In this document: positions 20,176-51,595 of the stretch, piece by piece
Numbering within the stretch: the stretch's first letter is position 1
Layout of the letters: each line of letters starts with the position of its first letter
Assembly (NCBI RefSeq): GCF_037042905.1
Contig: NC_087250.1
Location: 23,438,001 to 23,502,000 of the forward strand
DNA: 64,000 nt
Source of the DNA: Lytechinus pictus
Lineage: Eukaryota
Direction: 5' to 3'
Position numbers and translations under genes: made by a program
Notes under the pieces: generated by a model
What the model saw: only the letters and a program-made list of their open reading frames with translations
The model's database searches: none
What the model was told of the DNA's origin: nothing

Positions 20176-20260
20176 ACTTACCTGTTTGATGTAAAAAGAA
20201 GATGACAAGAAGGTCCGCACATGAAAAATAAAGAGAAAAAAAACACACATAAATTAGCAC
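20176..20260 (-). promoter_or_regulatory. Candidate recursive splice site (3'ss abutting 5'ss), junction 20181/20182
   Basis: Minus strand reads GCTAAT (branch-like, 20253-20258), then a pyrimidine-rich tract with no AG for 76 nt (20184-20259), then ...CTTCTTTTTACATCAAACAG|GTAAGT. Confidence 0.7.
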
Positions 20261-20839
20261 TTAGTTTGAACTAAATTACTCATTACAATAGTGTAGTATC
20301 ATGCTGTATTTCCTTCCTCATTTTATCTCCTATATGACAGAGATCAAACTTTGGACACAATATTTTCTGTAATTATACAATATTAGTCTTATGGCACATC
20401 ATGACGTCATAAGTACAGAAAATAGTTTAAAAGGGAGCTACTGATACTATTCCCCAGAATATATGCCCTTAGTTCATCATCTTCAAAGCATCAAATCAAA
20501 CCTTACAGCATTTAGAGAAATGTTCGAAAAATATACGTCACAACTTCTAGACCTGTACGAAAAACTACAAAGCACAAACAAAGGGGATTCCCAAATGGAT
20601 GTTAGTCTTCATAATTGGATCCAACAGAGGAAGAGAAAAGAGACTTAAAAGGGCCGTCCGAACAGCCTACACCTTTTGAATAGGACACCTTGTACCCTAG
20701 GGGTATAGCGTCTAGAAGGGTGTTAAAAAGGAACAAAGCTAATACTGCACTGCCCTCAAACATAGCCCTGAAACGTCCTCCAAAACGCTTATGAGCAGAC
20801 ATTTATAAGTGTGAAGTGATTCTTTAGTTGGAGGAAATC

Positions 20840-20978
20840 GGGGAGGGTTTCATGAGAAGCTTTATCAGTGAACTTCATCAACTCTGTTCCACTCAGCCAA
20901 TCAGATGCAAGAATTTTTGTAGCTTTTAACAGTTATAAGTGAAAATCACTGACTACACATTTCATGTAATGCTCCCCT
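20840..20978. mobile_element. ~135-bp MITE (GCATCTGATTGGCTGA family)
   Basis: TIR-like ends GGGGAG..TTTCATGA / TTCATG.AATGCTCCCC; related copies at about 24151-24288, 26431-26560, 26640-26767, 38630-38761, 53185-53315 and 60972-61092. Confidence 0.8.
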
Positions 20979-22771
20979 GATGGAGATGCTTAAAGTAGGC
21001 TTCTGTGAATGCAAGTTAAGTGCATGCTTAGTGCATAAGCCCATCCAACAATGCAGTACATACAGATAGTTTGATTTTAAAGCCTTTAAACATACACAGG
21101 CCTACATTATGTAGATACATGGGTTCTTTTTAAAGCTATTTTTTAAGAATGTGTTTATTCTGAAGAGGGTTGTCTTTAAGCATGTAGCCCTTTTAGTTTG
21201 GTGACATCTTCAAAAGAAGTTGGGGCTTTTTTTTACAAGCCTACTATCCGAACAGACTAGGTGACTCTATAATGCCTTGATCACTTTCAGATACAGACAT
21301 ATTTTTTAACTTATGAATTCCCCCCCCCCCCCTTCAAAAAAAGGAAATAAAATGTACGAGGCAATATGGAAGGAGCTATTATTATATTCACACTATCCAA
21401 AATATTTGAGAAATGCCAGAGTAAAAAGGCAAAAATAGAAAATACAAGGTAGATAGACTATTGGTTATCATCATCACAACAAAAGTTTCCCAACACCACT
21501 TGTACAAAAACTTAATACTTTTAGCAAACTTTTGTATCTTCAGTTTGCAAATGTTTGCTACGAGATCAGACTCCTCAGAGAGTACCTATCTATTTCAAAT
21601 TTATAATGGTTTTATTTTTATTGGTTTTTGGCTTTGAGACAAAGTAAATTCATGAAAAGGGTGGCATTCCGTAAAATAATGTACGAAAATCACAAAATGT
21701 GATTTTTCTACAATATGAGTGGATAGTCCCTGACCCCTCGTTAGAAGACCTACATTTCATAAAGTTATTAACCAAAAAAGTATACAATCCATTCAAGATC
21801 ACAATGACATGTGATGCAAGAAAATAAAACACCCAAATTTACCTTTCTCAAATCTAGACCAAACAAATAAGAATTTGAAAACAAGCAATACAAGCATAGA
21901 TATAGAGGAATTACCACTAATATTTCATACAATTATCATTCATTATATCCGACCTTGAACAAATTTTCATTCTTCCTTCCCTTTTGGGGATAAGGTCACG
22001 TTTTTCTGACCACTTTTCTTTTCCATTTCCTGCCGGTTCTATTCTTTCGCCTCCACCACTACTGCTTGAATACATGTGCCTACCATGTGTGTGTGTGTTT
22101 GAGGTAGCTTCCAAAGTGGTTTACTCCTCAAATCCATCCCAACAATCAAACTATTAAACGCAAATATTATTCCCTCTCGCTTGTCAAATAATTACCCCGT
22201 AGCCCGAGGGGGCGCGGAATATCGCTAATTCCTCGTAATTTCCAAAAGAAACGGCCAAACATGCGCGACCTCTACCCGAACAAGAGGGCATAAACGCGCT
22301 TAATAGCACGCCCTGCAAAAACATGCTTTGTGAGAAGCATACCAAATATACAGCCAATATAAAGGGCTTAGGGTTCGGGAACAAAGACCAACACGAAAAT
22401 GCATAAGTTGTGCTACCCCAGTACTAAACTAACTATATTATGATGTTAATGCAGACAGGCTGTACAGAATGGAGGATTAAATGCATTCACACACATGGCC
22501 TTGTTCCCATTTACAAAATCATTAAGAAAATTACAGATAATTACAAAGTTATTTCTACCTAAAGCACTGAATGGTATGAATGTATATACAGCAAACAGAT
22601 GGGAATAAGTGTTTGGTAAACCGCAGGATTAAATCCAAGAAAACAAAATTAGAAGTCTTTAGGGGAGAAATAGAAAGTTGAGCTAAAAATAACTTTCCAG
22701 TATTATCTCAAATTTATCCTGTACAATCATTTTGGAATGATTTAGAATATAGATGAGAGCCTAGGTACTAT

Positions 22772-22819
22772 CATGGAGCTATAAATTTGAGATAATGATG
22801 GAAATGTAATAGCTCTATG
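22772..22819. mobile_element. 48-bp hairpin stub with 7-bp TSD and templated filler
   Basis: GTACTAT-[CATGGAGCTAT...ATAGCTCTATG]-GTACTAT; filler 22781-22804 matches the reverse complement of 22694-22717 at 22/24. Confidence 0.75.
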
Positions 22820-23021
22820 GTACTATTAAAGTGGAATTTGTTCCTACATGTAAGAATCATAAAAGATGTAATGAAATTTAGTAACTGTTGTATCAAGAAT
22901 ACAATGAAAGTAACATAGTCTGTATAATAAACTAATATCTGCATGCACACCCCCCCCCCCCAGAACTTGCAAAATAATGTCTCTATTTCTTTCTTTTCCC
23001 CCTACTTTTCTAAAATCTTTA

Positions 23022-23435
23022 GGCCCAAATTCACAAAGGTGGTTTTGAAAACCCCTGGCTGAGTCCATGGTTTATGCAGATATACTGTATAAATTACGCT
23101 TAATTACCGCGTAAATTAAAAAATGTCCAATGCTGATGCGCGCTTTTGTCACAGTGCACCGAATTGACCCCTGTTGCCGTGGTTATCCATGCTATTTTAC
23201 TCATGAGTCCATTGTTTTTATTCATTAGTCCACTCTTCAAACAGGGGACTCATGAATGAAATAGCGTATCTAACCATGGTAACAGGCGTCAATGTTGTGC
23301 ACTGTGTCAAAAGCGCGCATCAGCATTGGATATTTTATATACACGCGCTAAATTAAGCGTAATTTATACAGGAAATCAGCATAAACCATGGATTCAACCG
23401 TGGGTTTTCAAAAACCACCATTGGGAATTCGGACC
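23022..23435. mobile_element. Long palindromic (foldback) element, arms about 190 bp
   Basis: e.g. CTGTATAAATTACGCTTAATT / AATTAAGCGTAATTTATACAG and TCCAATGCTGATGCGCGCTTTTG / CAAAAGCGCGCATCAGCATTGGA; central loop about 30 bp. Confidence 0.9.
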
Positions 23436-24150
23436 ATGAGGTTTGGTCAGATCTTAGGAAATAAGTCTTAAAAAATATAATATCACATTTCACACCTTTA
23501 TTTCTCCTTTCAATTAATACACTCACTAATCACACAAGCAAAATAGGCTAATCTGAAACAAAAATGAATATATTACAATGCCCGTTTTCATTTTACACAA
23601 GCAAACAATTTAATTTTCAGGTCAGTGCTTATATACAGGTGAAGGTTTGTTAGAAATCTGAGAGGATTTTTTTTCAGGTCAATAGACCAAAATACAATAA
23701 AAACATAGTCATAGACAAAAATACATGTGTTGACCCCCCCCCCCCCCAAAAAAAAAAAAAAAAAAAGAAAATAACAAAATGGTGAAATGAATATATCCTT
23801 TTTGAGCCATGGGTCATTTTCATAACCAAACCAGGTGCAACTATTTTAGTATATAATATTTTTTTTCTAAATTTTCCTTTTAATTTTCCTTTTCCATCCA
23901 GACCCCCCCCCCATTCATAATCACTTAGCCATTATTAAATATATTATATTGTACCATCATTGGGAGGATTGCATATGTACCTATTGAGCCTTCCCTATTG
24001 TTGCCATAGAAATTCTTGTACTAAGTATGTGTTGATGTTTTTTTGTGGGGAATTCATACTGGTGTCCAAAGCCTTCGGCCAGGATTAGGACTTTTTCAGT
24101 TTGATCAAAAAGGCGATTGATCCAGAAAGGGTAGGATAAATAAATAATAC

Positions 24151-24288
24151 TGGGAGGTTTCATGAAGTGATGTGTCCCCCTGACTTATACTCAAAACTGT
24201 TATAAGCTACTGAAATTCTTGCATCTGATTGGCTGAGAGCAAATTTGTCAGTGGAAATCAATGACAAGATGCTTCGTGAAAGACCCCC
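24151..24288. mobile_element. MITE (GCATCTGATTGGCTGA family)
   Basis: Homologous to 20840-20978 in the opposite orientation. Confidence 0.75.
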
Positions 24289-24594
24289 AATGGTTTAGCC
24301 CGTTATCAAAGGAAAGAGAAAGTACTCCTCGAAAAGTAGCGTTCTTGTGAGCAACCTGGTCTAACATTAGGCCTAGACCTGATTCATTGATAGGCATAAT
24401 CACTGATAGGCCTAATTCCAAGATAGACTTTACTCTACACTACAGCTACAACCAGTTGGTCTAGTACTACAAATTAGGACCAAGTGGGTGATGTTTGGTC
24501 CAATTACCACAAAGTTTATACACTTGGGATAATAAATGTCATTTAGCCTAATAGCCAAATCAAAACCTTTTTTATCAACTGAGATAACCCCTCT

Positions 24595-24765
24595 ATGACA
24601 AGTTGGTCTATGATACTTTGCCTTTGGTCTACAAGTTGTTCTATGATGCTTCGATCTACAAGTTGGTCTATGATATTTTGATCTACAAGTTGGTGTATGA
24701 AAATTTGGTCTAGAATAATTCAGCCTATGGTATATTATTTTGGTCTATGAAAAGTTTGGTATCTT
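24595..24765. repeat. Degenerate minisatellite (ACAAGTTGGTCTATGAT-like, ~27-32 bp period)
   Basis: Motif repeated 5-6 times. Confidence 0.7.
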
Positions 24766-25139
24766 ACCAGCCATCTACTAAGATAGACAGCTCTGATTAA
24801 TGGTACAGATACATTCATGCAAATGACACATTTATATTAGATAAATCTATCAAATAAAAAAACTACTGTAATAAATCAATGAATGTATGCATGCAGCATA
24901 AACACTTAATACCTGGCTCAACATTTTTGTTTTCAAAGTAATATTCGGAAAGAGAAGTGAAATCTAGTGCTACAACCAACCGAAGGCATCAACCTTAAAA
25001 AGTGCATTTCGTATAACCCTCTTACTTTTCCTGAAGCTAGAATTAACCGAATAACTAAAGTCCAAGTTGAAATACAGACTAAAGCAAATTGATTGCATCG
25101 TCTGCAAAGCCCAAGCAAACCCAAACCAATTGCCAACTT

Positions 25140-25229
25140 TAATCCAAATCTCATCAAACTGCTCCTCCCCTCCCGGCATATTTAATCCAATAATATTTAG
25201 ATAATCCCCCTTTAATCCACTTATAATCC
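25140..25229 (+). promoter_or_regulatory. Cluster of five TAATCC (K50 homeodomain: Otx/Pitx/Gsc-type) sites
   Basis: TAATCC at 25140, 25183, 25202, 25213 and 25224. Confidence 0.55.
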
Positions 25230-25404
25230 GAATGATAATTCATAACCATCTTTGCGGAGAATAACGGGGTCGTTGAATGTCAGAGAGATGTATTACGTGG
25301 ATTTAGGTAGAATGAGTCAACGCTGGTTTACAAGAAGATGTAAACTAACATGCGTTTCAAGTAAAATATTTAGGAATCTTAACAGGATTAAGAAGTTTAT
25401 AGAC

Positions 25405-25593
25405 CTGGGGGCCATTTCATAAAACTGATTGTAAGTTAAGAGCAACTTTAAGAACGACTGGTGATCCTTTCTTGTGGTAAATGATATTAGCCATTCAATG
25501 TTCATTGGTGATTATTTAGAGCATAAGAAAGGATCACCAGTCGTTCTTAAAGTCACTCTTAACTTACCAACTGCTTTATGAAACATCCACCAG
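25405..25593. mobile_element. Palindromic MITE
   Basis: ACTTTAAGAACGACTGGTGATCCTTTCTT / AAGAAAGGATCACCAGTCGTTCTTAAAGT within inverted arms of about 70 bp. Confidence 0.85.
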
Positions 25594-26430
25594 ATTTATA
25601 GAATAATGTGATTAGGCACTCTGCAGCAATTAATATTCTTGAAATGCATTGCCAAGAGCGATCCCTTTTTAAAACCACATTTATATTACAGGGAAATGGA
25701 AATTCCTAGAAGAATATGACTAAGGGGGTGAATTCTAGTTTTAAAAGTGCAGTCCAATTTACAAGAAATTTGAAAGAAAAGTTTGCAGAAGTCTTGAATT
25801 GCTTATAAAACGGTTACTTTTACACAGGGATGGCATACAACATTTTCAAACAGTATTCTAATGATCACTAAAAAGATAGTTTGGTGGTTATTTTACTCGC
25901 ATTGTACATTTCACCTACATGTATTACCAAATGCAAAGAATAAATTCATTTTTGTTTACAAGATGTATTTCCACCAAACTTGCATTTAGGTCACCATGTT
26001 TCTATCTTATCTTATCCATGTTGATATGTACCATAATAAGAGCAGGACATAGTATTATGTGATTATTTACATTTCGTTCTTTGGACTCTACTTGCACTAC
26101 AATCTACAATGATTTTTCTTCTGTTGTTGTTATTGCTGTTGTTGATATATCGTTGTTCTTGATATGGAAATTGAAAAAAAATAAAGATTCATTCAACATA
26201 GTAAAACTGCAAAAAAAAGAATCAGTTGGCCTCACTTTTAGCTTTATTTCAAAAAGCAGTAAATAAAATATTTCCATCTAAGCTTGAATAACAATCACAG
26301 TACGCATCTTCCTAAAACACCCAGACAAAGCAGAACAAGGGGAGAGATAATAAGAGATACCTGACAAATGTTGATTTTGAGATAACCTTCATTATATACA
26401 CTGACAGTTTGATCCCACACCTCCCATCCA

Positions 26431-26767
26431 GGGGGGCACTTCAGGGAACAAATAGACAGTGATTATCACTGGTTATTCGTTAAAAGCTACTGATATCCTT
26501 GCATCTGATTGGCTCAGAGGAAAGTTGTCAATGACAAGATGCTTTGTGAAGCACTCCCCAGGCTCTCTGCAGCAATGACCTTTGACCTTTAGATCCAGGT
26601 CATGTTCATGTGGTTAGTAAGATCAAGCTTGGAAAAGCTGGGGTGAATCTCATGAAGAGATTTACCAGTGGATTTCAATGACAGCTGTTATAAGCTACTG
26701 AAATGCTTGCACGTGATTGGCTGATAGCACATTTGTCACTGAAAAGGTTTTTCATGAAATGCTCCCC
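26431..26767. mobile_element. Two adjacent MITEs of the GCATCTGATTGGCTGA family
   Basis: Copies at about 26431-26560 and 26640-26767 share AAGCTACTGA.AT.CTTGCA..TGATTGGCT. Confidence 0.75.
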
Positions 26768-28354
26768 ATTGGTGTGGTCATAAATCAGAGGCCCATTACG
26801 ACTGTGTTTGGCGCTTTGGGAAAACAGGGCATTCCTCATGAGCGCAATTTCTTGGCATGTTGTGGGCATTTTGAGGTCCTTTGTGATTTATCAAGAGATG
26901 ATAATATGCTGGAGCAGTTTTTTTTTTCATAGAGTATCTGCATCTAGGGTTGTGGGTAGGGGTGTTAATGCTAAGGGAATGTAGGAGGTGTTTTGAACTG
27001 GTGAGCTTGGTTAGGGAGAAAGAGGAAGGAGAAAGATGATGAGGAAGAGGAAGAAGAAGGGGAAGAGGATCGGGGTGAAAGAGAGGGGAGGGGGAAGAGA
27101 GGAGAAGATGGAAAATGAAATGAGGACAATCATGAATCACCCCCCCCCCCTCAAATAAATTATACATTGTAATGTGCTGAAAGACATTGTTTGATGTATT
27201 GAATACTAATATTAAACATATTATACTCATAATTATTTTAACAAATTTACCTAGAAAGTAATTTCTAAAATCATACTTCACAAGCTTGCCTACTAGATCC
27301 CTGAGTCGAGAGTTGTCATGGAAAGGACTGAATATAATGTATATCAGTTAGTTTAAACTTGGGGAAAATCACCCCTAAACAAAGTGACAATTAGTCCTTA
27401 CCTTCTTTTCCTTTCTGAAAGATTTTCACAACTCTTTTCTTCTTGGTCAAACAACCAACTCACTATCTCTATCATCACACAATATTATTTTTCATCTCAT
27501 AAAAAACTTTTCCCTACCCAATTTATGGTCACAAAGGGCAGTAAGAGCAGACATTTATCACTTCTCTGAGACCAGTTAGGCCCCTTTGGACATGTTATTT
27601 ATGAGTTTACAGAGTACCAGTCTGAGCCTTTGATAACAGAAACAACACTTGGGAAAGCAAATGAAAATGGACTTGACTTCTGGCATTTGGAAGGAGAGAA
27701 GCTCCACGTTTGAGGTCACAAAAATTGATAATATGCATAGGAAATAGGCATACACAATTGAAAGTACAAAGATATTGGGTAGAAGTGTATTTCCAGGAGC
27801 TAGTGTGTAAACAAAATAAAGGCATACATCAGGCTCACAGCAATCGGGCAAACCAATGTCATGCAATACAGAATAGAGAGATCTTTTCACATTGCATTTT
27901 AAGTTGGTCAATCGTTCTGTGCTAAATTGTAGTTTGAACAATTATTCACAATAATTATGAGATATGATTTATTATCTACCATAATCAATTAGCAGGGAAC
28001 TCAAGGCACCATGTAAAAATCACTTTTTTCAAATTTATAGGAATGTCTTAATTAAAAAAAAATTAATTCAACTGTAATGCTGTTAAAGGCCTATATATTT
28101 AACCTTCACTTTCAGGAACACTCAATAAACCATCTGTCCTGCGAGTCTAACCCTAAAACCTCAATCATAACAAAATATCAACTTGAGAAGTGCAATTACC
28201 CCACTTCACGCTCTTAACAATTCAATTTTTATGCAGGTGGCGAAAAAAAAAATCCTAAAATCTTATCACAATGGAAAAAGTTACACCTAGAATATTCAAC
28301 ACATCATCATCAAGCCTACAAGCCGGTTTCTCTCTCCCCCTTATTCTTGCCCCG

Positions 28355-28392
28355 AGGTCGTCCGAGGTCAATTTCATGACCTAATGGGGTCA
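28355..28392. promoter_or_regulatory. Nuclear-receptor half-site cluster (DR4 + IR6 + ER4)
   Basis: AGGTCG-tccg-AGGTCA-atttca-TGACCT-aatg-GGGTCA. Confidence 0.45.
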
Positions 28393-30539
28393 AGCTTATT
28401 TGCGGTCATTGTGCTTGAGCTTCGGTATGAAGCGTTTAAAGATGCATTAAAAATTGGAGGGTTTTAAAAGGGATTGGTTTCTATTCAAATAGCGTTGTAT
28501 GGATATTTCTTGAAAAACATTGATTTTTACATGCGGTAATTATATTTGAGGTGACACGAGTATAAAGGGTTTGGATTTGTGCAGGTTTTGATAAAACTCA
28601 GGTGTTTTGTTTGTATACAAGGATCTGAGCTGATGGTGGATGGACAACTTTGTTAACAGGTAAAGTTATGTATTTTTGTTGAGATTTTTCTCACTTCTGA
28701 TTTCTAATGGTTGCCCCCCCCCCAAAAAAAAAAAAGGCCAAACAGATAAAAGTATTGCTAGTAGTAGCAAGATCATATTTCACTCTATTAAATCAAAGAA
28801 TTTCAATTCTTATTTGTTGTATTCTTTTGAAAAAACCTATCCAACTATTCATACCATAAAAAGGCCCCCCCCCCCCCCCCACTTTCCCCACCTATCTCTC
28901 CCTCATTCTCTTTCTCTCTACCTCTTGCTCTTTCTTTCTCTTTGGTAAATTAAAATTGATCAATCAATCAAGCAATGGATATGGATCATTTCTTCTTTAT
29001 CTTATTCATGTTCTCATTATCATTAGGGGCCTTTATTTTGTTGTCTTTCACATTCTTGGTCCTATGCCCCCCTCCCCCCCCCCCCCCCCAGCTACACCTC
29101 TCCTCTCCATTTTCGTTTCATCCACATCATTCCAGAAAAGATACAAGCATTATTTGGTCTCTGTTTGGCATCCAAGCTCAGAAGAATAGATCAGCTCTAC
29201 AGTACATAACACAATCATATCTTAAAAACTATCTTTCATCTGCCTTGATTCATTGATGATAACAGATTTTGCTTGGATTATTCCATTAATGATCTATCGA
29301 CCCTCTGGGAGAGTGCATTGTGGGTAATCCTTTCTTTTAGTTATAGCTTCAGGCGAATTAGAATATTGACAAAATATAGGCCTGCTCCACTAAAAAGAAT
29401 CAACATAATCAACGATAAAAAAGATAAGGAAGGTTGTGTCATAACTTCTAATCAATGTCGGGACAAGAATGCATGATTTTAATTTACTTTGGGTTCTTGT
29501 TATATAAATGAGGTACCCCTCTATTTTTGCTCCCCCCCCCCCCACCTCATTTCCTTCCTTTTCTACTTTTCTTAAATTTCAATTGAAAATATAACACACA
29601 CCCCTTGCCTCAACCTTTCATTTTCTCTCTCTCTCCTTACACTTATCTCTTTCTTTTCCATCCCCTATACCCCTTTCCTAACCCCCCCCCCCCCCCCGCC
29701 ATGACACCTACTTTAATCTTTTCAATGCCACGCTTGTATTGTGTGTACACATGCAATCATATCTGATTATTTTCATTTTGACACATGCATTCACTTCATT
29801 ATCTTTGTTCCAATAAAAGTTTGATCTTTAAAAGTCTTTTGTTTAAAAATTATTGAATAGATCTTGTTTTTGGTAGAATCAATGTATTGACTTTAATTGA
29901 CTGGAATTGCAATCAATAAACTTGAATTTTATAGACCGAACGAATGATTGTGTTCCGATAACAGTTATGTCTGTATGTGTAGTGCTTGTTTGCCACACAT
30001 CAAAACATTAATCCAGGCAAACTTTCTACTCCCCTTCGCAACGCCTCACCTCCTCTCCAAAAATATATCTGGCCTGAAAATATCTCTATCTCTGAAGTTG
30101 TGTATATTTGTGAAATATTCATTTATTTCCATGTTTCTTATTACTTCACTCATCTTTGATCTTGATTTTCTCTACATTTCTGGTATAATATTCATTTCTT
30201 ACGATTAAGTTTGCCTGCACTTTTGAAATTTTCAATATTTTTGTATAATTATATTCATCACGTTTCATTTGGCAACTCACGCTGCACATACAAAACTGCA
30301 TTCAAAGAAATCAACGCATTAATCAGGCTAATACATATAAAGCAATCAGCAAGTATAAAAAGATCATGACATGGAGATAACCACGATGCACGCTCTTTTT
30401 ATAAAGATGAGCAGTCGAGCAGACAAATCTATATTGTTAAGCAGACTTTTGTCATATTCTGAACAAAAATCCCCGGGATATTGAACTCATCCGTGACTCA
30501 TGCTTCTACTGCTTGAGGTAGAATGATAACATGAATATG

Positions 30540-30735
30540 TTTTGCTATATACTTCTGTCTGTGAGAGGGATGTCTGTTCACATATTGGTTGTATTCAATT
30601 AAAACTTTTTAACTTACAAACACATATTTTCAAATTCATTTTTATAAAGGCCTACTTCTGTCTATGGTAGCGATTGCTGTTCACATACTGATTGCATTCA
30701 ACTAAAACTTTTTACCACACAAACACATTTTCAAA
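30540..30735. repeat. ~105-bp tandem duplication
   Basis: TACTTCTGTCT...CTGTTCACATA.TG.TTG.ATTCAA.TAAAACTTTTTA occurs twice. Confidence 0.75.
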
Positions 30736-32341
30736 GACACCTAAGTTTTGCATTTTGCTGTACTCCTACAGTGATTACAATTAAGATAAGATGCATTCAA
30801 TCTCAACCAGTTTATCATGCAAACACGATTCAAAAATATTAATAGATATGTTGTATGTTATACTATATAAGCCTACCACTGCATACTTTTGTATGAATAC
30901 ACATAACAAAATAACTGACTCTTTTGAAAATGAGTGACCTCCCCTTTAAAACGGACATTCTATTTAAAAAGGGAGCTCATGCATTCTCAATAGCCTTATA
31001 GTGCAGCTTCTTGATCCCAGTCTTCGGTCATAAATAACCTACAACTATCAAGTACACAGGGCCAATGGCAAAGCGATCCCTCATGCAATATAACAAACTA
31101 TCTCATATTTTTGCACAAGCATGGCTGGGGTGAACCCATGCGTTATGAATGACCGAAATTGGACAAAAGCAGCGAAAACAACAGAGAGAATGGGAAGAAG
31201 AAAGGGGGAAGAGCGGACGAAAATGAGATCAGCTCGGAAAGAAAGGAGGGCAAGGAATCGCCCTCAGGTGGAATCATGATTCACAAATTGAAAAAAATAT
31301 TACCATCACGACCATCATCGGCATAGCACAGATATTGGGCCTATCTTGCCATGCAGTGCTATATTTATGCCTATCAAATGCTTCTTCCTTACATGGGGGA
31401 ATATCTTTAAGGCTATTCCCCCACATTGTACTCTGAATATTGCTTGTTTTGTACAAATTTTGCCCTTTATTCTGACGAAATAAATAGATAGTTAGAAAGG
31501 AGCTCCGCCAGGGGGAATTAGAGCACAAAAATATGATATTTACTTGCCTGTGAATAGACAGCTTCATTTAGACTGAGAAAAAGCTTGTTTGTCTCATATT
31601 TTCGAGTATCATTGGATGAAAGTTGCAAAAAGGATTCATAAAGATATCCCTACAGAAATACAAAGCCTAATTTTTGCTCGTTTGAAATGCTAGTAACTAA
31701 ATAATCACCAGTTCGAGCAGTAAATAATACAAATAATATAATGAAGAATGTAACTTGTTAAGTGCCAAATCCACTCTGCAACTGCCTGAAGTGCATCTAG
31801 GAATATTCATCCTCAAAAGTTTGCTCAAAACTTGGATGACCTTGAGAGGGGGTGTTCATCACACAACTCAAGGAATAATAATTGGTGCATTCACATATTA
31901 GATGACCCTCCCCCTTTCACACACACACATAACAATTGAAGATTACTCTCTAAAGTCATAATGCTTATTCCAAAAAGAAAAATGCATCTATTGGGGGCAG
32001 GAAAGAAAAAGAAATCTTTGAAATGTGAATGGACCATGGATCCAATTTACTATAGAACCATTTTCATTATTACGGAGTTTCTCTCTTTCTTGTTGTGATA
32101 TTACTGCAAAGGTCACCAAGATCATCAGATAACCTAGGTTCAAAACTTGTTCTCATTTAATCGCTTAAATCATATCTTGACATGTTATCTCCATGTTAAA
32201 TCGTTTTAATCATAACTTGGAAGAGATAACACGGATGGTTTGTTTAAAATCCTTTTTGAAAATTTGAGCTCCCAATTTACTTCGACATCAATTACGAAGG
32301 AACCTCCAACATCAGGCAAGGTAAGGTATTGGTGTGTGAAC

Positions 32342-34164: not shown

Positions 34165-34590
34165 TTATTCTTTTATTCATTCCATTCCTTCATTCCTTCA
34201 ATCAATCAATCATTCATTCATTTATTCACCCATTTTATCCATTCATTCATTTCTTCTTTTTTTTTCTTTCATTCAGCCATCCCTTTTTCCATTCATTCCT
34301 TCATTCCTTCATCCAATCATTCCTTCCTTCCTTCCTTCTTTCATTCATTATTTCTTTCTTCCTTTTAATCATCTCTTCATTCATTCATTTATTCATTCAT
34401 TCAATCCTTCATTCATTCCTATATTCCTTCCTTCCTTCCTTCCTTCCTTCATTCCTTCATCCATTCATTCATTCATTCTTTCATTCATTATTTCTTTCTT
34501 ACTTTTAATCATCTCTTCATTCATTCGTTCATTCATTCATTCATTCATTCAATCCTTCATTCATTCCTATATTCATTCATTCATTTTATT
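34165..34590. repeat. Degenerate (CATT)/(CCTT) microsatellite
   Basis: Direct reading; it generates the spurious ORFs 34043..34597 and 34131..34508. Confidence 0.95.
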
Positions 34591-40384: not shown

Positions 40385-40475
40385 ACTTACCTGTTTCCAA
40401 AGCCAGGCAGAAAACGTGATGAGCAAAAGAAGGATATGCAAAAAGAACAAAAGAAATGCAAATCAACAGCAGGCT
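40385..40475 (-). promoter_or_regulatory. Candidate recursive splice site, junction 40390/40391
   Basis: Minus strand has an 81-nt AG-free pyrimidine-rich tract (40393-40473) ending ...TTTTCTGCCTGGCTTTGGAAACAG|GTAAGT. Confidence 0.65.
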
Positions 40476-40514: not shown

Positions 40515-40750
40515 TTTTAAATTTCAAGACTTTCAAAATTACTCAATCCAGAGCTGCGCTGAATAGGGACCAGCTAATATTGAATTTATTTTTTAATCTT
40601 CAGATTCTGTTTGGTTTAATTTCAAAGGATTTGAATTCAAATCCTGTAAATTCAATTTCAAAAGGTTTAAATATACAAACCAATAGTATTTTGCTGGTAA
40701 CTATTTACGGCTGCTCTGGATTTACTCCAAATCCTTGAAATTTAGAGTGC
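40515..40750. mobile_element. Degenerate palindromic MITE
   Basis: TAAATTTCAAG...AATCCAGAGC.GC / GCTGCTCTGGATT...CTTGAAATTTA; related to 14230-14460. Confidence 0.55.
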
Positions 40751-41918
40751 ATTAGAAATACAATATAATAATATGAAATGAAACAAAACTAGTCAGATTG
40801 CAGAGATAACAGAATACAATCTAATTCTACGAATTAGACAGAAAAATGATACAAATAAAACAGTGTAATATATTTCCACTCTTTTTTCCTTTTTAAAAAA
40901 CCATTCTAAAATATAGAAATCAAAACCCTACTAATATACTGTAGTACAATTCCATACAGGAAATTATAAGTAAATTATATGGAATATGTGGTGGATTCGT
41001 TCCATTAAGAGAAATGATTATCAGATCTGTATTTTTTTTAATGGGAGAGTTGTTGAGTGTTAAAATCATAAAGATGTGATATAATCTTCACTGTAACTCC
41101 TCAAACCACAGAGCAAGGTAACCACAATGGACACAAAATAAACACCACAACTCTTCCAACATCGTCACTGAGTCTCATTCATAAGTATGATTTTATACAT
41201 GCCACTTGAATAAAAGACTTTCAAATCACGTTCCATAAAAGAGCTACATGCGTTTTAGCATCTAAATTTATGCATAAACAATGATCATATGTTTTTCATA
41301 ATGTATTGCACTGCATCATCAATGTTTGATAATATGCCTTATTTTGACTGTTTGAATTTTGATTCCAACAAAGAGAATGGCATGGAACATTTATGAATAA
41401 TATATAATTGTTCCATTGCAGACAGGTTTATAAATTCAAAGGTTAAAGAAGACGAAAAATAATCCCAAAAAGTTCATAAATATCATCCAACTCTTTCGGC
41501 TGAAAAAAACTAAAAATTTAATATGAACATTCGAAATGGGAGGCTTTTATAGGGACAATATTAATTATGTATTAGTTTACCTACATAAAAAATAGGTAGG
41601 CCTATATGAATGAACTTTTACCTGCACACACACACACAATAGGTCAATGAACTTTGAAAGAGTTGCTATCTTTAATTTCATGGGCTGGCAGCAATATGGA
41701 AGTAATACAATCACAAGTTATTCCTGTGAGAGAGCACAGACATGCCATTTTCTCAAACCTCCTGTTTATTTGATCCAGATATTGGGAATTTCAGCCCAGA
41801 ACGTACAAAGATTGAACCCCCCCCCCCTCCAGCGAAGTGAGATGAAATCAAATGATGTACCAGTATGCATTCTGGTAGTGCTTCTACCTTACATGATATA
41901 GGCCTATATTATACACTT

Positions 41919-42079
41919 CAGGGGCCGCGGAAGCAGGGGGGGGGGCTGGGGAGGCTTCAGCCCCCCCCCCCCCCACTTTTTTCCAAACTCGTGTACAAAA
42001 ACGTTAAAATGACCATAGGATTGTAATTTTTTGCATGGTCAGCCCCCCCCCCACTTTAGAAACCGTTCCGCGGCCCCTG
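41919..42079. mobile_element. 161-bp MITE, 14-bp TIR, 5-bp TSD (hAT-like)
   Basis: CACTT-[CAGGGGCCGCGGAA...TTCCGCGGCCCCTG]-CACTT. Confidence 0.88.
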
Positions 42080-42189
42080 CACTTTGTAGTTTGTAGTATT
42101 TTACCCATCTGTCTGTTAATATTTGAAAAATATAATCTTGCTCTACCTATTATCATTAAATTTGTCATTAGTAAAATCAAACTTCTACA

Positions 42190-42360
42190 GTTACGTTGTG
42201 TTAAGTATCATTACGTTATGTTATCATTATGTTACCTTATATTACGTTACTTTACATTACGTATGGTTACGTCACATTGCACTATGTTATGTTATGTTAC
42301 AATATGGAGTGGTACAGTATGGCTTGATTGTGCTATGTTAAATTGTATTGTACATTACAT
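42190..42360. repeat. Degenerate pentamer microsatellite (TTACG/TTATG)
   Basis: Direct reading. Confidence 0.75.
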
Positions 42361-42877
42361 TAAAAAATAAAGGTTACATACAGTCTATACAATACAGGAT
42401 GTTTTGTTGTGTGATGTTATGTTAGGACTGACACTAATGTCTTATATTATTCTGTACTGTATTGTATTACACATGTATACAGGAATTGTCTTTTTCCTCT
42501 GTGTTGCTTTTTTTTTGTGTTCTTGTGATATAGGCCTATAGGGGCATGTCATACCCAAGAATTCTTGTAATTTTGACAAATGCTACTATTTAGCGGGTAT
42601 TTTCTTTCGGGGAGATGACGCGTAATTTGCTTTCAAACTGCCAAAATACCTGGAACTGACGGACTTCGAGGCGGTCTGAAACCACCTAGTCTAATGCATT
42701 TAAAAGATCATGAAATTTGTTTATGTTTATGAATTTATTTGAGTGTTTATGAATGTCTTCATGATGATGTACTGTCATTGCCAGATTCATTAAATAATAT
42801 CACTGAATTTTTGAAGTTTTTGTAAATGGATGAATGGACTAATGAATGTATTAATGAAAGAATATGAATGAAATATC

Positions 42878-42974
42878 GAATGATTGAATGAATGAATGGA
42901 TGGATGGATGGATGGATGGGTGGGTGGGTGGGTGGGTGGGTGGATAGATGGATGGATGGATGGATGAATGAATG
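42878..42974. repeat. (GAAT)/(GGAT)/(GGGT) microsatellite
   Basis: Direct reading. Confidence 0.95.
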
Positions 42975-43676
42975 TCCACAGAATTTGAATGATAAAAAAT
43001 AATTAATTCCCCAAATACTTCCGCTCTGTACATCTACACAGTGAACTAGCGATCATACAGTTCAACAATGACCATCACTTCCAACAGAATCCCATATCAC
43101 TAATAAAAAAAAACACTTCAACCGCCTCATATAACCCATCATTACCTACTACCCGCTGCTTATCTTGCTCATTACCTGTCACTAATTGGGTAAAAACAAG
43201 TGTTTTTTATGACTTTCTGTATAGCAACATCCTATACATAGATGTAGGTCTATAAACAACCTGCAAACATTGGTAGAAATGGAAACATGTCTTTCTACTT
43301 CTGTAGGGAATGTCGCTCGATTGCTTCTTGAATCATGTTTAGATGGTATTGAATTGAAGGGAATGAATAAAATTAACAAGTGTGGCATGTGTAACTCATG
43401 TATCGCCATGACAATGATGATGTCACAATGATATTAACAATGGAATTAAACTAAGAAGAGTATAAGGCTTACAAAATGGAAGGAGGTCTAAGGGAAGAAC
43501 CGTTCTCGTATAAAATTATTTCCACTTTGCGTCATATCTTTCATTATTCATTATTTCTGTACAATAAATATGTTATTATTTCTACTGATCTATTTCTTTC
43601 ATAAACTACATCATCAGATATTTCAGAATGGGTCATTTCATCCTGTTTTGGCCACCCCACCCCACCCCCCCTTCCC

Positions 43677-44276
43677 CCTTCCTTCCTTCCTTCCTTCCTT
43701 CCTTCCTTCCTTCCTTCCTTCCATCCATCCATCCATCCATCCATCCATCCATCCATCCATCCATCCATCCATCCATCCATCCATCCATCCATCCATCCAT
43801 CCATCCATCCATCCATCCATCCATCCATCCATCCATCCATCCATCCATCCATCCATCCATCCATCCATCCATCCATCCATCCATCCATCCATCCATCCAT
43901 CCATCCATCCATCCATCCATCCATCCATCCATCCATCCATCCATCCATCCATCCATCCATCCATCCATCCATCCATCCATCCATCCATCCATCCATCCAT
44001 CCATCCATCCATCCATCCATCCATCCATCCATCCATCCATCCATCCATCCATCCATCCATCCATCCATCCATCCATCCATCCATCCATCCATCCATCCAT
44101 CCATCCATCCATCCATCCATCCATCCATCCATCCATCCATCCATCCATCCATCCATCCATCCATCCATCCATCCATCCATCCATCCATCCATCCATCCAT
44201 CCATCCATCCATCCATCCATCCATCCATCCATCCATCCATCCATCCATCCATCCATCCATCCATCCATCCATCCAT
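43677..44276. repeat. (CCTT)11 followed by an uninterrupted (CCAT) run of about 139 units
   Basis: CCAT run 43721-44276 (556 bp); source of the MDGW/PSIH pseudo-ORFs. Confidence 0.98.
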
Positions 44277-47076
44277 CTACCTATCTATCTATCCATCTTA
44301 TCATTCACATTTAGTCTTTACTATCTTTCATCCACTTTATTTCTATCTCACTACTTTCTTTCTGTCTGTTGATCTATCATTGTCTCTCTTTAGCTCCATC
44401 ATTCAATTCCTCCCTCCTTCCAAAAAGGAACCATCCTCCCCCATATCCTCTATATACATCAATCTCTTTCTATCTCATCGTTCGCATTCTTCCTAAAGCG
44501 AACCAAAAGAAAATGTTATAAGACTGAGTGTCTGAGTTGCTACACTCAACGGAGAGCTCCACTTCCATACACTATACACTTCGTCAACAGAACCCTGGCA
44601 TGTTGACACGGCACATAAACCGCCGATAGAGAACAAACAGCATTACGGTACCGGTTTCTCGCTCAACGAGCGCAAATTTACTCAGACCGACCCCGCCGCG
44701 CATCAATCATGCTCATTTGCCGTTTACGGAAGACCACGCTGAAAAGGGAGAGCGCCTCAAAAAAATTCATTCATTCCTGTTTTTTAATTTCTTTTTCATC
44801 CATTTCAAATTTGTCAAGTCTTCATATTTGTCTAAGAAAGCCTAGGGAACACTTTGGATGATATGGGCATTAATAAGAAGGTGTCGGGCGATCGATCGTT
44901 GGGCGGGGTAAACAAAGCGATGCAGATCTTTTTGTGAGATCTAGGACTAATATTTATGATTGGGAGAGAAAATTGGCTCAGAATACATAAATTATTGCCA
45001 GCTCTCCCAATAAATTTTCAGGGTTGTATCAACAGAACAGTGACAAGTATATAACAATGAGTAATTTATGAATTATCATAGCAACTGCAGATTTACCTGC
45101 AAGTGGGAATGGATATTTTCTTTTTTCATAATTATCCTGCAACATCTGCTCTGCAATAAGAATTAATTTCCTATCCCCAACTTCTTTATTAAATAACTTT
45201 ATCTGCAGATCATTTTTAAAAGAATATAAAATTTTAAAAAAATACCCAAATACAGTGATATAAACAGCAAAAAAATCATTCATCTTCATGATTAAAGTAA
45301 GCTTAAGTAAATGCATATCTTTTAGTCATTCATGTAAGAAAATCTATATAAAAAAAATAGAGTAAAGAATTTGTCATGGGGGAAGAGCCAGCTTTTACAC
45401 TATACAGATATTTTCATAGTAATACAACACTGAAAATGAGAATATAATTACATCTTGATAGGCCAAAATGATACTGGAAATACAGCTTGTTCTCAACGTG
45501 GACCCTACCACAAGTCCATGTTCTCAACATCCAATTTCCCTTTCCCTTTCATCTACTACCACCCTCCTCCCTTACCCTTACCCTTCAGGCTACACCCCCC
45601 CCCCCTCCAACAATCCTGAGCTTGGTCTCAACCTGCCATTTCCCACTTCCCCTCCAAACTACTAGTTAACCCCCCTGCACCCTTATCCTGCAAGTTACTT
45701 GCCTCACCCTCCCCCCCCCCCTCTTCTCATTACCTCTTCCCCCACCCCCAAATCCTGAATAACTGTTATGACCCATCTCCTAACAATATACACCAATGTA
45801 TACCACTGTATCATCTTCAAACCCGTAATCCAATCTAAGGAGCATGTCTTCGTCCACCAGCGTATCAAATTAATTATGCTTCTCATCTTGCCCTCTCCCG
45901 CTCCCTGCTGCATCATCGCCGGCGGCAACGGAATATGGACAACCCCCAGGCCAACCAACGTCTCGACCTCTAGCTGCAATATTCATAGTTTGGATCGGGC
46001 AGAGAATTACTGTGCTCCCCGGCAGGCACGTATGACTCATAGAGGGTAGGGGTGGGGTATGATGGGGTAGGGGTGGGGGGTATAATGGGGAGGGGAAGGG
46101 GTGGGGTGGGATAGAGGGTGGGGTTGTAGATGAGGGAGGGAAGGAGAAGAGGATGAAAGAGAGGGGGAACAATATGGAGATAAAACTTTTGAAAGAGGGA
46201 GGGGTGAAGATGAAGGAGAAGATGGAGTTGTTTCTTCATCCTCCATCTCTGTATTACTCATATAAGTCCGGAGGGGGATCGATTTCCGATATATGAAATC
46301 CACTGTAGTATGCCTCAAGAGTCACGATTGTGTTTGTAAACTTATGCTGGAATGCTCCCCAGGAAGTGGAGAAAGTGCATAGAATGTGTGGGGCAAAACC
46401 AGACCCCGCTGACCAGGGTAATAACAGAGGAGAAGAGAGCATGCTTTGGACCAAGGGCATTAAAAAATTTGATTTATTTTTTGGGGGGGAGATTGATGCC
46501 AACTTGCCCCCCCCCCCCCTTCTTCCCCATCAAGGAAGGGGTGTCAGTGGAGTTATTTTTTACTTCTTTCTCCCCCCCCCCCCTTGTCAGAGAAAGAATG
46601 ATGAAGAAAAAGTATGCTCCCCCGGTTCAACTTGGGATCCGCCACGTCGGTAAGGATGAGAATGAGGAGGAGGAAAGGAAAGATAGATCACAAATAATGC
46701 ATTCTGGGATTCACGATGAAAGATTCACAGCAATGAGGATACCAGGCGAGGGCTCTGGTTTAAAGAATAGAGACATTCATTTCACAGATCCGATGTCGGT
46801 CGACGGCGCTAGAGGTCTGCCGGATAATGTTACGAGATTCTGTAATTGAAATGACGGCCGATTAAACTCATGAATATACCGGGATAGACATTAACGCATC
46901 TCAAAGCCCAAGACTACTCATCACAAGAATCATAAAAATGTTCACTTTTACACACACTATGCACATGTTTAATTATAGAGATGAAAGGATGTATGAATGG
47001 AAGTTGGTGGTCATGTAGTCTACGAGGACAGACTCAAATTTAACACTTCAACAAATTATACCATGTCTAGAGTTAA

Positions 47077-47672
47077 AGGGGAATCCAGCCTTGGCCATAA
47101 CATTTTGTGTTGGGAAGGAGAAAAATAAATTAAAACAGAATGGTGAAAGTTTGAAAGAAATCGGACAAGCAATAAGAAAGTTATAGCTGCTTTAAAATTG
47201 AGATCACTAATACTATGTAGATTTCAAATTGGCAACTGAGTAAGTAAATTACGACAAGGGGCAAGGACAACTTTCCCATAGGCCATGTACTTTATTATCA
47301 GGGATTTGTGGTTTTCTCCTAAGTACACATTCCCCTGGGGCAGTAATCTAAATATAACCCAGGTAGTATATTGTTTTATGTCCTCATGAAAGAAAAATAT
47401 AATTTGAAATAAAACTTTTGGGAAAAACGAAATTTTAGCCATAATATGTATTGGAGTACATGGAAGAGTAGTCCTTGCCTTACATCACTATGACATCCCA
47501 TATGCGGCCAATTTGAAGTCTCCATAGGTATAGTGATTACCAATATTTACAACATTTAAAAATTCATAACTTTCTTGATGTTTGTCCAATATTGTTCAAA
47601 CTTTCACCTATCAACTTGTCTGATTTTTATTTTCCTTATAAAAACAAGTTTTTATTTGGGTTGGATTCCCCT
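47077..47672. mobile_element. Non-autonomous TTAA-targeting DNA transposon (Kolobok-like), 596 bp
   Basis: TTAA-[AGGGGAATCCA...TGGATTCCCCT]-TTAA; subterminal AAGAAAGTTAT / ATAACTTTCTT inverted motifs. Confidence 0.88.
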
Positions 47673-48832
47673 TTAAGACTGGGCAGAGCATCTCTTCAGT
47701 CCTTAACCACCATAAGCCTTATGTTTAAGCTCATACTCAATATCAAATTATAAAACTGTAGAAGAGCACCCAAGAATAAGGCAATAAAAAAATTATCAAC
47801 TACAATTTTCTATAAAAAGCAATAGGCCAAGTTATTGTATGGTTTGGTCGGTTGACTATTAACTCATCTAACATGATATTTTGTTGTTTAACATCTCTTA
47901 AACTTGATTTTTCTTTATCATTCAGGATCATATAGGACACTCTGGGCATGCAGTACACTGAACAATTATGTTGATGTGAATCTTTCTACGTTTCTGAATC
48001 GTGTTTCAGGATACAATGTAAGCATGCTGTGTATGAACATGCTTAAACATGAACTTGTCAATACTGTATATGACTCACAATCGTAAGTATACATGATTGC
48101 ATCATTGGCCTGAGGACATACAATTATTAATGAACTCAGAGTGTACTTCAATTCACACCTACAGGTCTGTGAATCTAATTTTGAGTGACAGAAAGGCGCT
48201 TGGGCAAAATTTGTTATTTTCTGTACAAGCGTCATTTCCATTTTCCTCCTCAAGATCTGAACATTGTGTGAGTAACAGAAGGTGGTTTGGGAGAACTTTG
48301 ATAATTTTTTCACTTTCTGTTCCTTACTGAATTCCAGTTTGCCCTGCAGCTGCACCAAGTAGTAGTAGTAGTAGTAGTCTACAGAGCACTTATGTGTAGG
48401 AGAGCTACTTATTTTGTTTTAAGTTTCCCAACTCTTCTTCATAACTTTACACAAAGGTTTCAATAGGAAGATAAAATAGGCCTTCATTTCAAGCTATTAT
48501 GATCTCATCTCAATCTTCAAATTGGCAAAGTACATACTGTATTCTGTCTTCTTGAACTTCAAATTGGTAATCTGAATGTATGCTGACTTCCTGAAATGCA
48601 CAAAGTTGCTTTCTGGCAAAAGCAGAAAGGATACGTTCTAAGCTGAACCGATCACATGCACTTTCGGCACAACTTTTTAACTACCCATTATAAGACAATG
48701 CAATGTTATACATATAACATGCAACATCATTTTCATTCCTTCATAGGGGACGTTAAGTAATACAATTTACCAAATAATTGTGCATGAGTCCGTAGTTAGC
48801 CCTACTAATCTACCCCTTCCCCACAAACACAA

Positions 48833-49148
48833 AGGTTCGTATTCTGAACTTGGGTTTAAATTAAACTTTGGTTTAAAGTTGTGGTTTAACTGTGGGTAGC
48901 CAATTGTGGCATAAACCTCTAATGTTAAAGGTTCAATGTATTGGCTTATTTGGCTATTGAATCATTCTTAACTGCCTGGGAAGGGTAAATAAAATAATGT
49001 CTTTTCCATTCAACAATTATAAGAAAAAAAACACAGTGAACATAAGAAAGATACAATATAAACAAAATTCTGACATTTTTGGCTTCCCATAATTTTAGCA
49101 CAGAGTTAGACGACAGTCTAAGTTACAACGGACTTCAGAATACGGGCC
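48833..49148. mobile_element. MITE with GGCCCGTATTCTGAAG termini
   Basis: GGTTCGTATTCTGAAC ... CTTCAGAATACGGGCC. Confidence 0.7.
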
Positions 49149-50465
49149 AAACAGTTTACCCTGAGGAAGCAGGGGGGCCCAGACATTCCACAGCTTGTAA
49201 CTTTCACTTAAGTATGTAAATAAGGAAAACTGGTAGACCCCAAACAAGCATCAACATCCTATAGAACTGGTCAGCACTTGAAGAACAATAGGAAGGACAT
49301 GTATTGTCTGAGGTGGGGATGGTCTAGGAGTAGTCTTGTCTTGGGTGAGTCGCAGACCCTTTGGAAGGATGCCCCACAAGATGATAATTGATGAATTACT
49401 TTAAAAAGCCAAACTTTAGTCATCATACAAATCTGCCGAGTCTTACAGTAATAGTAATATTTCTAATATTGTTCAATACTTATGTTTTTAAGTGCCTTGC
49501 ATTGAATATTATTATTAAATAAGATTTAAATTATGTGAGACTTGTGACCACCTTAAGTTGAAGTATTCAAAGAATGATAATCCAGTAATGTTGGGTAATT
49601 TGAATTAAAATTTAAATGAGTACTTAATCAAATCAAATTAACTATTAAAACTATTTGAGCTAGGCCTATGTGAATTAAGTAATGCTGATATTACATAAAC
49701 TATTGTCCATTTCAAAAAGACTCTGTAATTACAATACAAATGCATCTTAGGTGCGCACTGAGCAAAGAAGAAATTTAGACCCGGGTGGCAGGGTCTGAGA
49801 TGAGAAGACTAGGATTATAAGAGAAGACAATTCTCACCCATGTATCAAAAGGACCGAGAAAGGGGGCCTATAGTTCTAAGTGGAAAGGGGTCATTAATTA
49901 TGTATACCACTGCCCCTTCAACCCCATCATACCTGAATGTTTGCACACAGGGGTAGATTGTTACATTACAATACATTGAGGAGCCAAAACCTTTGTTTGA
50001 GGGGTAAAGAAAACTTGGAAAGGGGAAGGAAAAGGGGTACATTTAAGAGCTGGTCTTTTGTTAGAGGGGTAATGGAAAATGAGTGGAGGGGTGAAAGAGG
50101 GGTGTAAGGTGTGCCACTGGGGGTTGAGAGTGTGGGAATTGCATGGACATGAATGAAAGGGAGATCGGAATGGAGTGTGATGTATGTGGAAAAGAGGGGG
50201 TTAGTATTGATGGTATTGTTTTTGTTTGGGTGTTGTTTTTTGTTTGGGGTTTTGTTTTCGTTTCGTTTCAATAACGTTCAAAGTCACTCATTGTTAGAGT
50301 CAATGACCGATGACATGCAATTGGTGTACACATGTACATGGAGAGATCCCTCTTCAGGCTTCTGTCCTCCGTTACTCTCTCACTATTTTTTTTAGCTTTC
50401 TTTTTCTTTCTCTTTCTCTCTCTCTCTCTCTTCAAATCAACCCTAGATTACACATTCACATTTAA

Positions 50466-50842
50466 AGGTATTGTTTAACTTTGTGAGCAGCCGATTTAAA
50501 AAATTCTCAAACCAAGATGAAACATGTGTACAAGTGCATGTATTAGAACTAATAAACCCTGAAAACAACCATTATTGAGAATGAAAAGCTAAAACTACAA
50601 GGCAAACCCTGATTTTGTAAATAGGCGTCTTATAGACGCCTAAATAGTACACATAAGTGTATGGGATGAAATTAAGATGGTGTTTTCGGTCACTTTATAT
50701 TTCAATTTTTGAAGCACTAAATAATTATTTTCAACGCAATTTTTTCTGGGCTTCATTTTTGTAACATATCACAGACACAGGTGACAAGTGTGACCTTCTA
50801 GCTCAGATTTTTTAAAAGTCAAACCAATGTTAACCAATCACT
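50466..50842. mobile_element. Non-autonomous TTAA-flanked element (Kolobok-like), 377 bp
   Basis: TTAA-[AGGTATTGTTTAAC...GTTAACCAATCACT]-TTAA; imperfect TIR. Confidence 0.7.
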
Positions 50843-51506
50843 TTAAATCTATATTGAAAATGTCAAAATGGAACATTTCTAAGTAAAAACATTACAGGAC
50901 AAAAAAAATCAAAATGTTCTTATAACAAAATTTGATTGAAAGGCAAGGATGTTGAATTTAAATGTCGCCATCTGTCACAACTTAAAATACTTCTGACAAA
51001 AGTTCTGAGCTTACTTGTCCAGGTTAAGGTAAATCCCCTTGGCCTTCACCTCAAACAAAATCTTATTTTACACAATTTATGTGGCGGCGCAGCTCCTAAT
51101 CATTTGAATAATTTACAAGCCAACATCCACAAACTATTCCGAATGGTCACGTTTCAACGCATTGCCCACGACCTTAATAGTTAACGTGAGCCAATGATCA
51201 ACAATAAGCAGTATTACGACAATATCGCTTTCACGACAAGTGTTGTAAAGTTGGTTTTTATGATTGCCGTGTGTGAGGTGCGTTTCTGTTTTAGTATCGC
51301 CAAGTACTCATCACCTCTCTCAACCTAGAATGGTAAAGAGGGAGGAGAGAGACTGATGGGAAGGGTTGTCATGGTGATGACATGTAGCATCTCTCAGTAT
51401 CTCCCCTGCTCTAAGAAGAGATGAGTGGAGGGGAGGGAGGGGGTGGGATGATGATTCTTATGTAATTTTCATTTGTGCATGACAATTAATATTACATCTA
51501 GAAGAC

Positions 51507-51595
51507 ACTTACCTATTGAAATCAAGAGATGAAAATACATCAGGATCAGCACATGAAAAGAAAGAGAAAATGGCAACAGTTGAATGGTTAGTTTC
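51507..51595 (-). promoter_or_regulatory. Candidate recursive splice site, junction 51512/51513
   Basis: Minus strand has consensus branch point ACTAAC (51587-51592), no AG for 150 nt (51515-51664), and ends ...TTTTCATCTCTTGATTTCAATAG|GTAAGT. Confidence 0.72.

Follow-up and report, generated by a model that had tools for sequence, protein, structure and literature searches.

Drosophila ratchet points, in Ubx, kuz, osp and several hundred others, were reportedly described by Hatton in 1998, Burnette in 2005 and Duff in 2015, and vertebrate recursive splicing is said to proceed via recursive-splicing (RS) exons, as set out by Sibley in 2015. Here we examine a stretch of 64,000 nucleotides of the sea urchin Lytechinus pictus (G000:C6:23438001-23502000; hereafter the window), which lies wholly inside intron 1 of the ephrin gene, and we describe a series of eight candidate recursive splice sites in this intron of 184,628 nt, three of them within the window.

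The fly ratchet point is a 3' splice site fused to a 5' splice site at AG/GT (the slash marks the cut), with a strong 3' signal, from which the 5' splice site is regenerated at each step; such sites are sense-strand features of the very long introns of developmental genes, where one intron carries several of them (PMC6110457). The ephrin intron shares these traits, with the regeneration predicted from its sequence. It would also resemble vertebrate RS-exons, by which long genes lose their long first introns in steps, a 5' splice site being rebuilt at the junction (Blazquez, 2018; PMC6224609). Distant branch points with AG exclusion zones (Gooding et al., 2006; PMC1431707) have in common with it the long AG-free zone before the AG that is used, and the rat tropomyosin “zero-length exon” (Grellscheid and Smith, 2006, as described in PMC2773006) the 5' splice site directly after the 3' splice site. 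As presented in these sources, however, both are single regulated vertebrate exons and not series that subdivide a giant intron (PMC1431707; PMC2773006). Closest in lineage are the counts of ratchet-point sites (RP-sites) in sea-urchin introns longer than 50 kb, 0.540 per 100 kb sense versus 0.066 antisense, an 8.2-fold difference (Shepard et al., 2009, PLoS One 4:e7853; PMC2773006, Table 2), from which it was concluded that invertebrates, including sea urchin, accumulate RP-sites (PMC2773006). The lineage and the sense-strand excess of fused sites in introns above 50 kb are the same here. In contrast, the part of that paper available to us gives genome-wide counts obtained with a human-derived matrix and contains no named gene, site anatomy or experiment (PMC2773006). 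Because of these counts, the kind of site described below is both known and predicted for the lineage (PMC2773006).

We read 314 kb of DNA around the window, from -150000 to 164000 in window coordinates. In tblastn searches with the ephrin protein of S. purpuratus and with XP_054756771.2, the L. pictus model, the ephrin exons fall on the minus strand. Exon 1 (76247-76087; C6:23514247-23514087) encodes the signal peptide and ends at the donor TCTAA/GTAAGTTC. Exon 2 starts at -108542, after the acceptor ttcttccatcacag/T, and exons 2-5 occupy -108542 to -111376; the minus-strand open reading frame (ORF) containing exon 2 (-108860..-108474) matches Pfam Ephrin with E=3.8e-23. Intron 1 runs between them on the minus strand, from 76086 down to -108541 (C6:23514086 to 23329459). 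At the exon 1/exon 2 junction the protein reads DKNNS-N-FTSTG, with donor TAA/GTAAGT and acceptor CACAG/T, and exon 1 is joined straight to exon 2 in the ephrin protein models of S. purpuratus, L. pictus and Diadema antillarum. The host is the sole ephrin gene of L. pictus. A first-pass annotation, made from the letters of the window, had predicted a minus-strand host transcript and the interior of a very long intron, to be checked by mapping the window to its genome; the mapping bears out both predictions, the whole 64 kb falling within ephrin intron 1. Ephrin models differ in their treatment of this intron: those of L. variegatus and L. pictus version 1 (229 amino acids each) begin at exon 2 and lack the signal-peptide exon, and L. 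pictus version 2 (288 amino acids) includes that exon, 185 kb upstream.

The junction YAGGTAAGT occurs three times in the 64 kb, always on the minus strand. Site 1 (TAG/GTAAGT, 51507-51515, cut between 51513 and 51512) lies 24,574 nt past the donor of exon 1. It follows an AG-free zone of 150 nt (51515..51664) that contains a CTAAC with its branch A at 51588 (-76) and a pure pyrimidine run of 16 nt (51555-51570, -58 to -43), then CATG. Site 2 (CAG/GTAAGT, 40385-40393, cut between 40391 and 40390), 11,122 nt past site 1, has an AG-free zone of 81 nt (40393..40473) with TTGAT, its A at 40463 (-73), and a pyrimidine content of 80-90% from -70 to -51. Site 3 (CAG/GTAAGT, 20176-20184, cut between 20182 and 20181), a further 20,209 nt on, has an AG-free zone of 76 nt (20184..20259) with CTAAT, its A at 20254 (-73), and a pyrimidine run of 14 nt (20230-20243, -62 to -49), again followed by CATG. 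An AG-free tract of at least 76 nt precedes just 2.3% of the 213 minus-strand AGGT in the window. Under thresholds chosen after the sites were seen (at least 60 nt AG-free and at least 62% pyrimidine), GTAAGT comes next after 3 of 29 tract-bearing YAG on the minus strand and after 0 of 30 on the plus strand; GTAAGT by itself is equally frequent on the two strands (8 vs 8). The count of the 9-mer alone is weakly unusual, because 6 of 100 shuffled windows (mean 0.81) contain at least three YAGGTAAGT; for AGGTAAGT, 29 of 100 shuffles reach three.

Coding potential was examined in 309 stop-to-stop ORFs of at least 55 amino acids in the window, of which the 270 with an entropy of at least 3.6 were scanned against Pfam. 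None of the 270 reached the cut-off and no family was matched on any scanned ORF. The nearest match, to Lactamase_B (21.7 against a 22.7-bit cut-off), proved to be a translated CA/TA microsatellite and was rejected. What the first-pass annotation had read in the window is upheld by measurement: three minus-strand junctions about 11 and 20 kb apart, AG-free tracts of 76-150 nt before each of them, branch-point motifs at two (to which TTGAT at the third can be added), no comparable site on the plus strand and no credible coding exon.

Across the whole of intron 1 the series grows to eight tract-bearing sites, all on the sense strand of the host gene and 11-27 kb apart, with the G of the AG at 51513, 40391, 20182, -6194, -33489, -46464, -71042 and -88935 (minus strand). 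At each of the eight the AG of a 3' splice site is fused to the GT of a 5' splice site as YAG/GTAAGT, after an AG-free tract of 76-150 nt. The sense strand of the intron holds ten AGGTAAGT, eight of them preceded by at least 60 nt free of AG, and the antisense strand holds none. The remaining two, which lack such a tract, are found at -30148 and -51711; by eye, the copy at -30148 seems to belong to a short inverted repeat. In the 125,977 nt read outside the intron, AGGTAAGT is absent from the minus strand and found three times on the plus strand, once (-122695) just after the end of a 320-amino-acid ORF, where it resembles an ordinary donor. The tract-bearing sites are thus in excess over the antisense strand (0), over the flanking minus strand (0 in 126 kb) and over 200 dinucleotide shuffles of the intron, in which their mean was 0.065 (maximum 1) and that of AGGTAAGT 2.89 (maximum 9). 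Of the sense-strand AGGT in the intron, 29 follow at least 60 nt without AG, and 8 of these are AGGTAAGT, versus 2 of the 571 others (Fisher P=4.6e-10); GTAAGT alone shows no strand bias (35 sense vs 33 antisense). The genome-wide frequency of YAGGTAAGT (8,208 in 811.7 Mb, both strands) predicts about 0.9 on the intron sense strand, where 9 were observed. The reversed letters would be a misleading control for this pattern, because they occur 24,878 times in the whole genome and YAGGTAAGT is three times rarer.

The eight sites divide the intron into segments of 24.6, 11.1, 20.2, 26.4, 27.3, 13.0, 24.6, 17.9 and 19.6 kb, with a coefficient of variation of 0.265. Such spacing is more even than random: in 200,000 draws of eight random points, so low a coefficient had P=2.2e-4 and a longest segment of at most 27.3 kb had P=1.3e-4. 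Splice signals are thus present on the transcribed strand of intron 1, are confined to it, exceed chance by far and are evenly spaced. Their use in vivo is something that we infer from the sequence, and we consider it likely that the eight sites are functional recursive splice sites, that is, ratchet points with exons of zero length. The stepwise removal of a giant minus-strand intron, which the first-pass annotation had suggested from the three sites of the window, gains support from the gene context and the statistics of a co-oriented series of eight confined to the sense strand.

In the mechanism that we propose, transcription of the minus strand would start from exon 1. As each site emerged, U2AF and the U2 small nuclear ribonucleoprotein would assemble on the branch-point-like motif (about -73 to -76) and the pyrimidine run (about -70 to -45), and the first downstream AG, adjoining GTAAGT, would be taken as the 3' splice site. 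Exon 1 (...TCTAA) would be joined to GTAAGT and, because the first AG past the branch point touches GTAAGT, this ligation would rebuild the original 5' splice site, TCTAA/GTAAGT. Pieces would be removed one after another until the true exon 2 acceptor at -108542 was reached, so that nine lariats of 11-27 kb would be released in place of a single 185-kb lariat. Recursive sites in flies are used in 5'-to-3' order (PMC6110457), and by analogy the same order may hold for ephrin. Another order would also be compatible with the sequence, because joining any two such sites would rebuild a site.

The anatomy of the ephrin sites differs in part from that of fly sites. The donor is GTAAGT at all eight, with A at +8 in seven and A at -4 in seven, whereas fly donors vary (GTAAGT, GTGAGT, GTAAGC, GTATGT) in 47 rows of Table S1 of Pai et al. 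(2018; PMC6110457). In the same rows the fly pyrimidine run abuts the AG, for example T-rich sequence up to GCAG/GTAAGT (PMC6110457). At the ephrin sites, as far as the sequence alone tells, the purest run lies instead at -70 to -51, within the AG-free zone of 76-150 nt, and the last 10 nt are 49% pyrimidine. The pyrimidine share over the eight sites is 0.80 at -70..-61, peaks with 0.90 at -60..-51, and falls to 0.68 at -20..-11 and 0.49 at -10..-1. In six ordinary acceptors of the ephrin gene and a neighboring zinc-finger gene the share is highest at -20..-11 (0.92), and the AG-free stretch measures 29-35 nt except for one of 70 nt. A YTRAY motif with its A at -73 or -76 is found in five of the eight sites. 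The run ends in CAT in all eight (CATG in five), with the C at -41 to -52, and sites 1 and 3 share TTTTCATGTGC at the run end (51555-51573 and 20228-20246). The CAT end resembles an acceptor of the form (Y)nCAG with the G replaced. TCAT is present in seven of the eight spacers, a number reached by 1 of 300 shuffles, though many words were tried. No shared RNA structure was found in the 130-nt regions of the eight sites, seven of which fold no better than shuffles (z-scores +0.36, +1.90, +1.68, +0.70, +1.16, -0.57, -0.14 and -2.83) and which have no common fold.

Some of these results weigh against functional ratchet points. As a set, the eight sites lack the fly-type motif, in which a pyrimidine tract abuts the AG. 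In vertebrate RS-exons an exon is first defined by a downstream 5' splice site (PMC6224609). By a crude consensus count, cryptic 5' splice sites downstream of the ephrin sites show no clear enrichment: between 20 and 300 nt away, four of the eight have one match of at least 7/9, and the background is 0.55 per window. The thresholds that define a tract-bearing site were, in addition, fixed after the data had been seen.

One possibility, which we put forward tentatively and with more doubt than confidence, is that sea-urchin ratchet points are a distinct, “spaced” form. In it the branch point (about -75) and the core run (-70 to -45) would stand about 46 nt from AG/GTAAGT, separated from it by an AG-free spacer of roughly minimal-exon length. 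Recognition of one site as acceptor and donor at once may be sterically impossible (PMC6110457). At the ephrin sites some 46 nt, approximately the size of a small exon, separate the run from the donor, and we therefore propose that both complexes, U2AF/U2 and U1, might bind simultaneously, on a “virtual exon” that would have zero length once spliced. If true, the spaced form would solve the steric conflict of the fly site with no need for a cryptic exon downstream. With its fixed spacer and displaced pyrimidine run, the series is a natural experiment on how one site could serve as acceptor and then as donor.

The rest of the genome gives mixed indications about this proposal. Fly-like sites (Y10-NN-YAGGTAAGT) are scarce, accounting for 22 of the 8,208 YAGGTAAGT, whereas 10-nt pyrimidine runs are locally frequent enough to predict about 72. 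Spaced look-alikes, in turn, fall into co-oriented groups: the approximately 45 AG-free matches listed outside ephrin include eight adjacent pairs within 150 kb, where about 0.37 are expected, and all eight are co-oriented (binomial 0.004). The groups lie at C1:20876433 and 21018108 (+), C4:2464788 and 2496224 (-), C4:14718003, 14732147 and 14763246 (+), C8:15512104, 15563345 and 15649142 (+), C11:6234974 and 6313793 (-), and C14:6806074 and 6832968 (-), with internal spacings of 14-142 kb. They probably represent further ratchet-point series in other long introns, the support for this being their clustering and co-orientation. By eye, the two C14 sites and a third at C14:26095699 (-) are alike. 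With fly-like sites rare and spaced look-alikes grouped in this way, the spaced form may be the usual one in this genome. Against it, Y12-R-N30-50-YAGGTAAGT is not enriched genome-wide (146 vs about 171 expected from local background). The AG-free share, counted by eye, is also not above background, with 35 of the first 100 matches listed vs 185/623 for this pattern and 25 of 81 sites vs 82/239 for a Y8CAT pattern, the background being inflated by microsatellites of the ephrin region. Among AG-free matches, CAT and CAC follow the run in 25 and 5 cases, weakly above the expected 2:1.

Of the alternatives to recursive splicing, the one that survives best, although we think it very unlikely, is that the composite motifs are bound and not spliced, for instance as strong U1 sites against premature cleavage and polyadenylation or as decoys that tune ephrin output. 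The perfect GTAAGT at 8 of 8 sites agrees with this, and their even spacing also fits a protective role along the intron. However, a U1 site alone needs no AG, no AG-free zone of 76-150 nt and no branch-point-like motif upstream. GTAAGT without these features is not strand-biased (35 vs 33), and the fused form is the one that is spliced in flies (PMC6110457).

A reading in which the pyrimidine-rich tracts belong to exons, and each GTAAGT serves as the usual donor of a cassette exon, a poison exon or an alternative first exon, is very unlikely; exonic tracts with ordinary donors were an outcome that the first-pass annotation had itself named as one that would overturn its reading. The tracts are open in the frame dictated by exon 1, which says little because pyrimidine-rich AG-free DNA is open in most frames. 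Taking the nearest upstream AG as acceptor gives exon sizes of 152, 83, 78, 121, 106, 89, 89 and 102 nt, but only two of the eight keep the frame, which is the chance level, and these AGs (e.g., at 20260) have no pyrimidine tract of their own. An upstream acceptor with its own tract and a kept frame, as in an ordinary cassette exon, was accordingly found at none of the eight sites. A stretch of 76-150 nt without AG, in which YTRAY precedes a pyrimidine run, is arranged like a 3' splice site and not like an exon. The gene models of three species bypass the tracts, splicing exon 1 directly to exon 2, and no scanned window ORF has a Pfam match.

That the motifs match by chance, or that they descend from a single repeat or a duplicated piece of the intron, has a negligible probability. 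Two observations speak for it: the three YAGGTAAGT of the window taken alone (6 of 100 shuffles), and the likeness between the site 1 and site 3 tracts, whose local score of 38 was not reached in any of 500 shuffles. Against it, eight tract-bearing sites compare with 0.065 in shuffles, the genome has no second copy of the 201 nt surrounding site 1, and the remaining two pairings of the window tracts are dissimilar (scores reached by 182 and 90 of 500 shuffles). A BLAST comparison of the 3-kb flanks of all eight sites gave three matches, none at a junction. Intron 1 is without large duplications; its repeats are dispersed ones no longer than 621 nt, plus one tandem array. In a MAFFT alignment of the three window sites similarity is confined to the tract. 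Two exact-pattern scans of metagenome contigs for orthologous DNA returned 0 matches.

Other features of the region can be described briefly. The window contains a (TCCA) array of 154 units with 99% match (43680-44297) and an (ATTC) array of 105 units (34167-34585); inverted (ATGG) copies at 42888-42974 create inverted repeats of 95-118 nt. A tandem repeat with three copies of a 165-nt unit (2370-2866, 93% matches) underlies the longest non-microsatellite ORF of the window (206 amino acids), which has no Pfam family. A dispersed element of 61 nt, with core GCTACTGAAAT.CTTGCATCTGATTGGCT, is found in six copies that are 66-100% identical (15126, 24197, 26477, 26685, 38665 and 53182) and is presumably a small interspersed repeat. 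Just upstream of ephrin, a complete four-exon C2H2 zinc-finger gene occupies 93383-85676 on the minus strand, and an identical protein is named “zinc finger protein 814-like [Lytechinus pictus].” Two paralogous ORFs of 369-385 amino acids lie on the minus strand (145834-146988 and 137076-138182) and two of 319-320 amino acids on the plus strand (-139239..-138283 and -123664..-122705). Three long ORFs of 1049, 729 and 688 amino acids (95013-98159, 120279-122465 and -86469..-84406) are, by eye only, putative retroelement ORFs, and one of them sits within the ephrin intron, antisense to the gene.

In the first-pass annotation, recursive splicing was not known to have been characterised in echinoderms. 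This holds in so far as a literature search, with most subscription journals outside its reach, found no gene-level or experimental account in the group; it does not hold for genome-wide enrichment, which was computed in 2009 (PMC2773006). As far as can be told, the ephrin case, its size and its anatomy are new. The density of sites in intron 1, 4.3 per 100 kb, is eight times the sea-urchin average in Table 2 of Shepard et al. (PMC2773006). On the practical side, giant first introns lead to truncated gene models, as in the 229-amino-acid ephrin models without the signal-peptide exon. The ephrin intron offers a concrete, gene-level series of putative ratchet points in a deuterostome invertebrate, with eight sites and nine segments in one developmental signaling gene, and it bears on whether the ancestor of bilaterians already had recursive splicing through zero-length exons and vertebrates have since lost most of it.

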